Assembly (NCBI GenBank): GCA_051362555.1
Contig: CM120649.1
Coordinates: 17,870,567 to 17,934,566 of the forward strand
From: Lingula anatina
Lineage: Eukaryota > Animalia > Brachiopoda
Direction: 5' to 3'
Length of the DNA: 64,000 bases
Every line of letters begins with the position of its first letter. Within the stretch, counting starts at the first letter, position 1. Shown here one piece after another: positions 33,901 to 37,999 of this stretch. The position numbers and the translations under genes are program-made. The notes beneath the pieces are model-generated. The model saw nothing but the letters and a program-made list of their open reading frames with translations, was not told the origin of the DNA and did not search any database.

Positions 33901-34003
33901 ACTTACTGCCAATTGCCATGACGATGCAGCAAGATTTGTCAGTCTTTTAGCAAAACCAGGGTGCTTTTATCTGACTACAGAGGAGTTTGTGCCATTAATA
34001 CAG
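33901..34003 (+). CDS. PPP2R3B: PP2A B'' coding exon 5
   Basis: TTTCAG acceptor; LTANCHDDAARFVSLLAKPG...FVPLIQ; donor CAG|GTAAAA. Confidence 0.93.
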
Positions 34004-34015
34004 GTAAAATCACCC

Positions 34016-34018
<3 letters not shown>

Positions 34019-34079
<61 letters not shown>
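34019..34079. repeat. (CT)n microsatellite
   Basis: Directly visible. Confidence 0.95.
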
Positions 34080-34081
<2 letters not shown>

Positions 34082-34777
34082 ATATTTAAAATAAAATGTT
34101 TAACTTTATCCACGATTAAGTTTTTCCAGTGGGTGTCAGTATTCTTTGAATTAAGACTTTAAGTATGGTGGTTATATGACGCAAACTGTTACTTAACCAG
34201 GTGAGAGAGGAAGTTGACTGCAATCAGCAGAGAGATCTGCAGGTGTGAAAACAGTTCTGTTGATCTTACCTGTCAGTTAGTGTCAACTTGTTCTAGGGTC
34301 ACTATTAAGTTCTGCTGTGGAGATAAGAATCTTGAGAAGACCAGATCAAGATGGTGGTTCTTTTCAAAACAGTACAACCAGTTAGTGTCACACTGTCTTG
34401 TAGTCTGGCTTAATCTCTTGTCACTTTACTTGAATATTTACAGATACAGTGATATTGGCTCTGAGATTTTATTGCCTCGGGTGGCTTTATTGTGGGACAG
34501 TAAGTGTCATGTATGGTGTCACCAGGTGCCAAATAGAGGTCCCAGCTTCTTTGTCAGATAAGATCCATTGTGCCTAAATATTTGTTGTTTGTGAAGTTCC
34601 CTGTGTATTTATAGCCTTTAATTAGTCAGGGTGTGAACAACATTGCTTCTTTTTGTCCTCCATTGCTCATCCTGGCAAGTCACCTGCAGGGTCCTGACAC
34701 ATTATTATCAACCAATTAAATTTAGGTATTAGGGTCACATGATATGTTAGCAGGTGACATAGTTTTTCACTTTTTCT

Positions 34778-34937
34778 CCAATGTGTTGTTGATTGAAAGC
34801 ATTTCCAGCCAATCAGGGAGTGAAGTAGGTCACCTTAGCCAATCAAATAAGAGAGGAGGAACTTGTTGACACATGTCAACAGTGTTTTATTGTTTGGCTG
34901 GTTTAAAAAGGAGGGGAAGACATTTGTGGCATCACTT
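34778..34937 (+). promoter_or_regulatory. Promoter of the nested intronless gene: three CCAAT boxes, palindrome, TATA-like box, Inr-like site
   Basis: CCAAT at 34778, 34809 (AGCCAATCAG) and 34839 (AGCCAATCAA), 31 and 30 bp apart; TGTTGACA-CA-TGTCAACA at 34864-34881; TTTAAAAAG at 34902-34910; TCACTT at 34932-34937, about 30 bp after the TATA-like box. Confidence 0.7.
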
Positions 34938-35063
34938 CAGTGGCAGACACTGACACCTCTACATTGGTTAACTGACAGAATTTAGGTCTTCCTCCATTTG
35001 TCTCTCAGTTCAAGATCAAGGCGTGCGTTGCTAAACGTACACTGTGTAATCTTATAATTCATC

Positions 35064-35462
35064 ATGTCTCTGCATAATATGTATGAAGAATCTGAAGGAG
35101 CAGGGGCCAACATCCATGATAGTATAGAGAACGACTATCTGACTGAGAGTGATGGAGACCAGCTGAGTGAAAAGATAGATATGGCCAGTGACACAGTCGC
35201 TCTGCTCAGTGCCCTTGCGAGGGACCTTCGCGTCAGGTACGAGAGGGCTCAGAGAACCAAGCGGAACAGCTACCTGTGCAAACTACGTATCTTGTTGATA
35301 GCCATTCAGGGCCTGAGGGACACCTTCTACGAGTACACTGTGAGGAAGTGTGACGAGCTGGAGAGAATAGAAAGGAGAGTTGAAATTGAGCAGGGGCTGC
35401 AGTCACTGGAATATGATGATGATGACACTGACTCAGACTTAGATGATTACAATGAATACTAG
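35064..35462 (+). CDS. Nested intronless gene, uncharacterised 132-aa protein (acidic termini, predicted two-helix core); not a histone
   Basis: ATCATG start context; GC-richer and protein-like compared with the surrounding intron; lies in PP2A intron 34004-35845 between a promoter-like block and a histone-type 3' processing signal. Confidence 0.8.
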   Translation: MSLHNMYEESEGAGANIHDSIENDYLTESDGDQLSEKIDMASDTVALLSALARDLRVRYERAQRTKRNSYLCKLRILLIAIQGLRDTFYEYTVRKCDELERIERRVEIEQGLQSLEYDDDDTDSDLDDYNEY

Positions 35463-35592
35463 TTGGTCACTCCATCTTGGCTTCTCAACATGGTGTTTAT
35501 GATCACTAGATACTGGATGGCTGTTAGGAAAGAGAGAGAGAGAGAGAGCAAGATAGTTTATCTAGCACAGATATTGACCTGTTCATTGCAGT

Positions 35593-35636
35593 AACAAAGG
35601 CCCTTTTCAGGGCCACTATCACTTCCCAGAAAAGCT
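35593..35636 (+). terminator. Histone mRNA 3' stem-loop plus purine-rich downstream element (SLBP/U7-type 3' end signal)
   Basis: AACAAA-GGCCCT-TTTC-AGGGCC-ACTA (stem-loop 35599-35614, 6-bp stem, 4-nt loop) fits the metazoan histone stem-loop consensus including both flanks; CAGAAAAGCT at 35627-35636 is at HDE distance. Confidence 0.85.
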
Positions 35637-35845
35637 AAAGCCAATTAATTTGCCCAATTTAAAAAGAAAGATTTTTTTCTGATTTTTTTTATTCATTTTT
35701 AAAAATATTTATTTCAGATTTAACAGATACCTGCCTTGCATCAGAGCTCACATATTAAAATATTTTAGAATTATTATCTTTATAACCACTGTTTCCTTTG
35801 TTTTCATCATACCAGTAGGTAAAATTCTTGAATTTATTGTTCCAG

Positions 35846-35920
35846 GATGTTGTGGACACACATCCAGGGCTCACTTTTTTACAAGATGCACCTGAATTCC
35901 ACTCTAGATATGTACACACA
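35846..35920 (+). CDS. PPP2R3B: PP2A B'' coding exon 6
   Basis: DVVDTHPGLTFLQDAPEFHSRYVHT (conserved HPGL.FL...PEF.SRY); TCCAG acceptor, GTGAGT donor. Confidence 0.95.
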
Positions 35921-36503
35921 GTGAGTAACATGAGATTTTACGCTGAAATAATAAAGATAATAATTATTGATCTATAGAATAACCTTACAAATTTCAGAAG
36001 TGTTGAGGAGGGGGGGGAGCTGAAGAACCTCCCTTTTAATCAGGGAGGCCCATATTGAATGGAAATTTGATCTACATTTTATGTGGTTTAGCACTTTGCA
36101 TCCACAAAGGGGGATAAAAAAGTTTGCACAAAAAGTTCACAAAAAAAGTTCTTTTCATACAAAGAAGACCCCACCCCCCCTCAATTTGCTGGCTTGGTTG
36201 TAAGGATAAGGGGACAGAAGGAGAGATGTGTCTTAGTTTATGTTGATGTTGGATACTGAACATATATTACTAGTTATAACTTTCTTTGCATATTTTTATT
36301 GCTCAGGTTAACATAAACATATTGATTGTTTTCAAAATTAATTGTTTTAGAGCTTCAACTTTCTGTCAGTCTTCTCCTTAGATATACCTGAGAATACTTC
36401 TAACATTGTTTCAGTATTCATATTTTATTTTGAAGCATTTGTTCCCACAGTTGTTGTACAGTGCTTTACAGCCTCACATGTATCTTAATTGAAATGATTT
36501 CAG

Positions 36504-37510: not shown

Positions 37511-37854
37511 GTCAGCCATCTTGTTATTTTCATCACTAGGGATTTGATTTATCAGTTGTTGGTTGTGTTATTTATGTTTCCTTACTTAAATTCAGTCACA
37601 ATGCTATTGGTCATAAACAAAATACTGGCCAAACTTTTCTTGTTTCTTTCCTTTTGGATTTAATCTTTTTTTTTCATTTTTATTTTCATAAGCTTCTTAC
37701 AGATTATTTGGCAGTATATTTTTATTTCATTAACTTCACAGATTGCTGTAATTTTCATGATTAAATTGTTAAAACTCATTAACTGTATTACACGTAGAAT
37801 ATCAGTTTGGTGTTCCTCAAACATATTCCAAAATTCAAATAATTCAATCTGCAG

Positions 37855-37999
37855 CATCGAATACTGGTTCCGCTGCATGGACCTGGATGGGGATGGCGTC
37901 CTCTCCATGTATGAGCTGGAGTATTTCTATGAGGAACAGGTTCAGAAGATGGAAGCAATAGGAATAGAGCCACTGCCATTTGAGGATTGTCTATGTCAG
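37855..37999 (+). CDS. PPP2R3B: PP2A B'' coding exon 10 (EF-hand 2)
   Basis: IEYWFRCMDLDGDGVLSMYELEYFYEEQ...PFEDCLCQ; TGCAG acceptor, GTGAAA donor. Confidence 0.96.

Follow-up and report, generated by a model that had tools for sequence, protein, structure and literature searches.

We identified an intronless gene for a non-histone protein within an intron of a PP2A B'' gene of Lingula anatina. The stem-loop and box at its 3' end probably direct SLBP/U7 snRNP cleavage, which would yield a short poly(A)-minus mRNA. A stem-loop followed by an HDE is the SLBP/U7 snRNP signal for the non-polyadenylated ends of histone mRNAs. The gene belongs to a family in which the 3' signal is conserved with compensatory changes, and in other paralogues AATAAA takes its place. 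On the sequence features described below, from which we infer both transcription and the 3' end, the family is most likely a second client of SLBP/U7 processing. Table 1 gives the features of the locus.

Table 1. Features of the nested gene and its host intron in the analysed Lingula anatina sequence.
Feature	Position	Strand	Basis or detail
PP2A B'' host exon, upstream side of intron	33901..34003	+	Translation, AG/GT ends, host family
TGACA/TGTCA-rich upstream region, likely promoter-proximal sites	34264..34900	+	Three 12-mer copies (34274, 34379, 34498); inverted TGACA pair 34867-34878
Three CCAAT boxes, about 30 nt apart	34778..34843	+	34778, 34809, 34839
TATA-like element TTTAAAAA	34902..34909	+	Sequence; predicted transcription start near 34930-34938 (inferred)
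Intronless ORF, 132 aa, member of unnamed helical-hairpin family	35064..35462	+	ATG start
3' UTR, 136 nt	35463..35598	+	Sequence; (GA)n tract at about 35528-35548
Histone-type 16-nt stem-loop, 6 bp, 4-nt loop	35599..35614	+	Rfam RF00032, folding, covariation in relatives; predicted cleavage near 35618-35621
Purine-rich HDE-like box	35626..35636	+	Aligns with conserved AAAAG box of 32/34 relatives and two true H3 genes
ATTAAA, possible fallback poly(A) signal	35754..35759	+	Sequence
PP2A B'' host exon, downstream side of intron	35846..35920	+	Translation, AG/GT ends

A nested intronless gene and its family

The window, by which we mean the whole analysed stretch of 64,000 nt, is Lingula anatina sequence, with a receptor frame 100% identical to a Lingula anatina protein. 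A preliminary description had placed an uninterrupted ORF of 132 codons in an intron of a PP2A gene. The ORF coordinates hold, and so does PP2A as the host, now specified as the regulatory subunit B'' and not the catalytic subunit by the match of host exon 37847-37999 to PDB 4i5j (E 4e-25). The host intron spans 34004-35845, and the nested gene lies in sense orientation relative to the PP2A B'' gene. An in-frame stop occurs three codons upstream of the ORF's ATG, and GC3 of the ORF is 0.56 vs a GC of 0.33-0.39 in the flanks. The coding region was free of introns here and in 56/56 complete homologous loci, all of them uninterrupted ORFs. A profile search found no second family copy within the window. 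The window protein was absent from a collection of 15 billion proteins, with two alternative starts tried; the neighboring receptor was present there as a Lingula record. That metabotropic glutamate receptor-like gene (53028-44204, minus strand) has few, long exons and is 100% identical to the record. A pyrimidine tract with a terminal CAG occupies 34993-35008 in the predicted 5' UTR and could be a cryptic acceptor for host transcripts.

A HMMER search of 1.84 billion representatives recovered 126 relatives of the window protein at E<=0.001, with identities of 24-43%. Named members were hypothetical proteins of the bivalves and tube worms Mya arenaria, Lamellibrachia satsuma, Ridgeia piscesae, and Pinctada imbricata. 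We aligned the query with 109 of the 126 relatives (alignment A1), omitting 17 long or partial ones. The window protein retained all six near-invariant residues (R58, Y59, A62, R75, G83, and Y91). Of the 25 positions whose residue is conserved across 70% or more of the rows, it kept 15; the ten at which it differed included the F-x-x-A-C-x-Q motif. A family profile built without the window protein scored it at 90 bits and a profile from metagenome loci alone at 60 bits, while 500 shuffles reached at most 5.4 bits. Of 7,993 candidates scored with a profile built from 15 relatives, 554 proteins matched, and none of the 120 matches listed had a Pfam domain. Judged by these scores, the window protein is a diverged member of a large unnamed spiralian family, neither an orphan nor a one-off. 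Two annotated Mya arenaria proteins repeat the family domain in tandem, three times in P0130 and twice in P0131, and may be gene models that join neighboring copies. Pairwise dN/dS was below 1 in the pairs listed (median 0.44, 33 pairs), with medians of 0.37 (range 0.06-0.72) in 16 pairs of hairpin genes and a lower 0.125 in ten pairs without the hairpin.

PDB sequence and Atlas searches returned no family for the window protein, and a word-index search yielded 0 among 23 candidates. The family profile matched only generic coiled coils (BAP31, E 0.005), and an Atlas search with a relative gave a lead, scored 0.84, to a 51-member, mollusc-rich hypothetical cluster. Twelve pattern matches for relatives in viral contigs included none that was confirmed, leaving a viral origin of the family without support.

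The preliminary description could recognize no histone in the protein, and profile searches concur that it is not a divergent one. The window protein matched no Pfam family at E<=1, and the 18 Pfam families matched by 15 relatives included none of histone type. The hhalign comparison of the family profile with H3, the only histone compared this way, returned 0.11%. AlphaFold2 modeled the window protein as two long antiparallel helices (19-65 and 68-119; mean pLDDT 82.8) with low-confidence acidic ends. The predicted hairpin tip is basic and aromatic and is conserved; net charge of the turn region is +8 in the window protein (family median +6), and tail charge is -5 or lower in 70% of alignment rows. 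The antiparallel two-helix hairpin is shared with the ESCRT-III/Snf7 core, the ING3 N-terminal domain, and prefoldin. Foldseek found no match at E<=0.001 among PDB and viral structures (E>0.1). The best 50 VIA rows formed a flat list of unrelated hairpins with 4-16% identity and no histone-fold chain. Their Z scores fell from 11.7 to 10.0 at rank 50, with ESCRT-III and ING N-terminal hairpins on top, as in 9ftl (Z 11.7, rmsd 3.7, 109 aligned), 8cok (Z 11.7, rmsd 8.8, 100 aligned), and 5fd9 (Z 11.3, rmsd 1.6, 93 aligned). The likeness to ESCRT-III, ING3, and prefoldin hairpins is one of shape only, with no sign of descent. Complex prediction of the window protein with H3/H4 from other loci scored 0.27 (mark 0.34), which is no answer and weighs neither way. 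From charge pattern, 3' end, and promoter we propose, with low confidence, that the protein associates with chromatin or nucleic acid in embryonic cells that divide rapidly; it may instead be stress- or immune-induced, or have a membrane role as in other hairpins.

Histone-type 3' ends in the window and in relatives

The stem-loop lies at 35599-35614, 136 nt past the stop, between AACAAA and ACTA flanks and followed by CAGAAAAGCT at 35627-35636, all as previously described. It was also correct that no AATAAA precedes the next host exon: the first is at 35950, beyond exon 35846-35920, and ATTAAA occurs at 35754. The Rfam Histone3 model (RF00032) matched 35594-35638 with 35.5 bits (gathering score 34, E 1.3e-6), and this was the only Rfam match on either strand of the 64 kb. 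On our own 24-point hairpin scale, which rewards pairing, the site scored 24/24 and was the sole one above 21 in the window. It is the dominant hairpin in local folding; the 101-nt region as a whole has an ordinary folding z-score (-0.59), which is no surprise for a 6-bp stem. The purine box ends at +20 after the stem, which is 1-4 nt beyond its place in 32/34 relatives and 2 nt past the mode, and the 136-nt 3' UTR is long. The earlier claim that no histone gene is nearby stands for H3, with none found in the window by tblastn; for other histones it was judged from the list of open frames of at least 90 aa. A weak histone-like hairpin upstream in the same intron (34356-34371; 21/24, two broken pairs, no Rfam match) is probably a chance occurrence.

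A metagenome scan for the family gave 72 pattern matches, of which 68 were confirmed, in 67 loci; 63 of these include the stop codon. That homologues share the stem-loop and box was borne out in 34 of the 63, where the signal lies 13-169 nt past the stop (median 33). Best hairpin scores within 200 nt of the stop were bimodal, at 21-24 in 34 loci and 19 or lower in the other 29, two of which have <200 nt of sequence past the stop. Shuffles reached 21 in 1/1,220 cases; the reverse-complement control was discarded for this score, since the hairpin is near self-complementary. Among 35 aligned hairpins (34 loci and the window), 98.6% of cells were paired, and G2-C15 and loop U3 were invariant. Both sides had changed at 4/6 stem pairs (31 cells), values that shuffles equaled in 0/500 cases for cells and 63/500 for pairs; these pairing statistics are partly circular, given loci chosen by a pairing-rewarding score and related loci that are not independent, and are more a guide to how the stem varies than to how significant that variation is. 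An AAAG box ends at +16 to +19 after the stem in 32/34 hairpin loci; of the three true H3 genes, two have it at +16 and +17. The HDE-like box is the telling part of the signal because it lies outside the mature mRNA and has no known use except U7 recruitment. An Rfam scan of the window and the 67 loci found no U7 snRNA match.

Six of the 67 loci reached the Rfam gathering score, and at E<=0.1 the model found 14 of a further 17 hairpin loci (17 given of the remaining 28) with 24-31.5 bits. Family ends overall scored 24-40 bits, and three true H3 ends in the same data scored 21.7-27.7 bits. We ran a covariance model of the family 3' ends against the window plus 35 loci, of which 33 lack a scored hairpin and two have one. 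Beyond its training sequences, its only matches were the ends of the three true H3 genes and of one tandem paralogue; it had no match after stem-loop-less genes. As the family-end model also finds true H3 ends, and Rfam scores of the family are not lower than those of H3, family and histone ends form one class of signal. The stem-loop pattern had three matches in viral contigs (L068:3001-3028, L069, and L070); the one inspected lies just behind a prophage integrase and was taken as chance.

Family members can do without the histone-type end: 29/63 loci have no hairpin and mostly carry AATAAA. Among loci with enough sequence, AATAAA occurred within 300 nt of the stop in 6/28 hairpin loci vs 23/26 others (Fisher p 6e-7, treating loci as unrelated). 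We built a tree from 56 of the 63 loci (seven partial ones omitted), the window, and nine proteins. Hairpin state changes nine times on this tree, with at least four changes forced by supported branches, and a clade of 14 hairpin-less genes (98/89) is nested in a clade (100/98) whose other eight rows all have the hairpin. The simplest reading is an old hairpin lost several times, on a tree of 114 columns that is unrooted and in which the place of the window row is unsure. The window copy has the longest branch (5.3).

Promoters and genomic neighbors

In the window, the 800 nt preceding the ATG hold 13 TGACA/TGTCA sites vs at most 11 in any of 79 tiled 800-nt bins. Its 350 nt upstream contain four CCAAT/ATTGG vs 0.59 expected from window means, five TGACA vs 1.29, and no AATTG. 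The TTTAAAA at 34902, imperfect vs TATAAA, lies 162 nt before the ATG; TATAAA in homologues is mostly 65-186 nt before it. We compared the upstream regions of 45 loci (48 with 350 nt upstream minus three near-duplicates) with expected counts from shuffles. TATAAA occurred 29 times vs 5.7 in shuffles, TGACA 150 vs 72, TGACAG 44 vs 14, AATTG 158 vs 66, and CCAAT 59 vs 36. This motif set is not identical to that of replication-dependent histone genes. As a passage in 10.1101/720102 has it, TGACAG is a Prep/TALE half-site, and TALE and NF-Y mark elements active at zebrafish genome activation. By analogy, our guess is that family genes may be expressed in the early embryo.

In three loci (L025:1-2119, L031:1-1569, and L042:566-2609), a copy without the hairpin follows a canonical H3 gene of the same orientation at a distance of 1.1-1.4 kb; H3 is thus upstream in 3/67 short loci, and the 64-kb window has none. 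Two loci contain 5S rRNA genes, and histone-5S linkage is known from mussels according to a passage in PMC13525598. 5S rRNA or tRNA genes adjoin family members at L007:1434-1886, L030:364-482, and L059:1780-3420. Tandem paralogues occur in three loci. Tandem or inverted second family copies were seen at L008:2393-2701, L028:1-193, and L055:961-611, and the one in L028 comes with a hairpin and box of its own. On the minus strand of L004 and L014, exon-like frames flank the family gene on both sides or one; by eye these resemble glycogen debranching enzyme (L004) and C1-tetrahydrofolate synthase (L014). Nesting in introns of housekeeping genes may be common in the family. At L038:302-444, ahead of the family gene, a long inverted repeat matches several microRNA models far below threshold and is perhaps a small transposon.

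Processing model, rival readings, and comparison with histone genes

Under SLBP/U7 processing, the gene's own promoter, with its CCAAT, TGACA, and TATA-like motifs, would fire near 34934. SLBP would bind the hairpin at 35599-35614 and the U7 snRNP would pair with the purine-rich box, with cleavage near 35618-35621, 4-7 nt after the stem, leaving an mRNA some 685 nt long with no poly(A) tail. SLBP would then promote both translation and rapid decay of the message, so that the protein, like histones, would be coupled to DNA replication or to oocyte/cleavage-stage control. The copy appears to have arrived as DNA because its promoter and HDE are intact; we rejected a processed retrocopy, as promoter motifs and an HDE-like box beyond the predicted cut are both present. 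Against SLBP/U7 processing as the family's mode, 29/63 loci do without the hairpin, including the three next to H3 genes.

The family may use the histone pathway while the Lingula copy is a silent or decaying paralogue with an inherited signal. We consider this rather unlikely. The long branch, the ten altered conserved positions with the F-x-x-A-C-x-Q motif among them, TTTAAAA in place of TATAAA, the microsatellite in the UTR, and the absence from protein sets all point that way. Yet the frame is open over 132 codons with a GC3 well apart from flank GC, the six most invariant residues are retained, the hairpin is at full score and above the Rfam threshold, and promoter motifs are dense; such deep protein divergence with an intact frame would also be unlike neutral decay. 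The hairpin could alternatively bind SLBP on an mRNA that is wholly or partly polyadenylated at ATTAAA 35754, giving the kind of dual end that some histone genes have. The ATTAAA stands 140 nt after the hairpin, AATAAA is present in six hairpin loci as well, and in Drosophila maternal histone mRNA is reported to be polyadenylated in an SLBP-dependent manner (PMC11997800). Hairpin and AATAAA are largely mutually exclusive in the family, however, and the purine box keeps a fixed spacing in 32/34 loci. Such a box is needed for U7 cleavage only, and we regard a dual end as improbable.

The ORF is very unlikely to serve the PP2A B'' host as an alternative last exon, and the signal is very unlikely to be there for cutting the host pre-mRNA. 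Although the ORF shares the strand of the host and follows an acceptor-like tract ending at 35008, a splice from the upstream host exon to 35009 would be out of frame with the ORF and meet a stop after 22 codons, an in-frame stop precedes the ATG, and homologues sit in unrelated contexts with their own TATA. We rejected a fusion exon for this one acceptor-like site on the frame mismatch and stop; the intronic signal may conceivably also cut host pre-mRNA. Equally slight is the chance that the hairpin arose by accident, is the remnant of a lost histone gene, or belongs to a highly divergent histone. The Rfam score is just 1.5 bits above threshold and three relatives lie behind H3 genes, but the same signal follows 34/63 homologues, the Pfam and H3 profile comparisons found no histone, the model has two long helices, and the window holds no H3 remnant. 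Homologue hairpins, covariation, and the H3 profile test refute it in the main.

According to passages of PMC4604434, replication-dependent histone mRNAs are the sole non-polyadenylated cellular mRNAs known, and no non-histone SLBP target was found in HeLa cells. A eukaryote-wide stem-loop survey (10.64898/2026.10.14.759114) gives a median stop-to-stem-loop distance of 30 in histone genes of 2,281 animal species; as described there, it searched downstream of histone coding sequences only and so could not see non-histone genes. Bivalve histone ends are treated in PMC6210712, and the passages covered of PMC12153100, on annelid histones, did not mention the stem-loop. The literature covered held no description of non-histone genes with a histone-type end; supplements, which could list such genes, and most subscription papers lay outside this scope.

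If SLBP/U7 processing is confirmed, a conserved non-histone client in three spiralian phyla would overturn the histone-only rule and point to a gene class missed by poly(A) RNA-seq and annotation. Paralogue pairs with stem-loop and AATAAA would be natural tests of what the histone end buys a message, and the Lingula locus is directly testable through its predicted start, end, and size. More tentatively, the histone mRNA pathway of brachiopods, molluscs, and annelids could possibly also handle an old non-histone family of many copies. Driven by TALE/NF-Y/TATA promoters, and with repeated stem-loop/poly(A) switching as in histone variants, this family would supply early embryos with a chromatin-associated hairpin protein in bursts coupled to replication, and would be largely invisible to poly(A)-based annotation.

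The family shares much with metazoan replication-dependent histone genes: no intron, a short transcript (here predicted), a CCAAT/TATA-type promoter, the 16-nt stem-loop with invariant G2-C15 and loop U3 and an A-rich 5' flank, a purine box 13-20 nt downstream, and multiple copies, some of them beside H3 or 5S rRNA. Unlike these genes, it encodes a fast-evolving protein (24-43% identity) without histone fold and acidic at both ends, its promoters are TGACA-enriched, and the Lingula copy is alone in a host intron. H3.3, H2A.Z, and H2A.X are replacement variants or dual-ended histone genes. Like them, the family has some members with a stem-loop and others with AATAAA; unlike replacement variants, its poly(A)-type paralogues stay intronless and its protein is not a histone.
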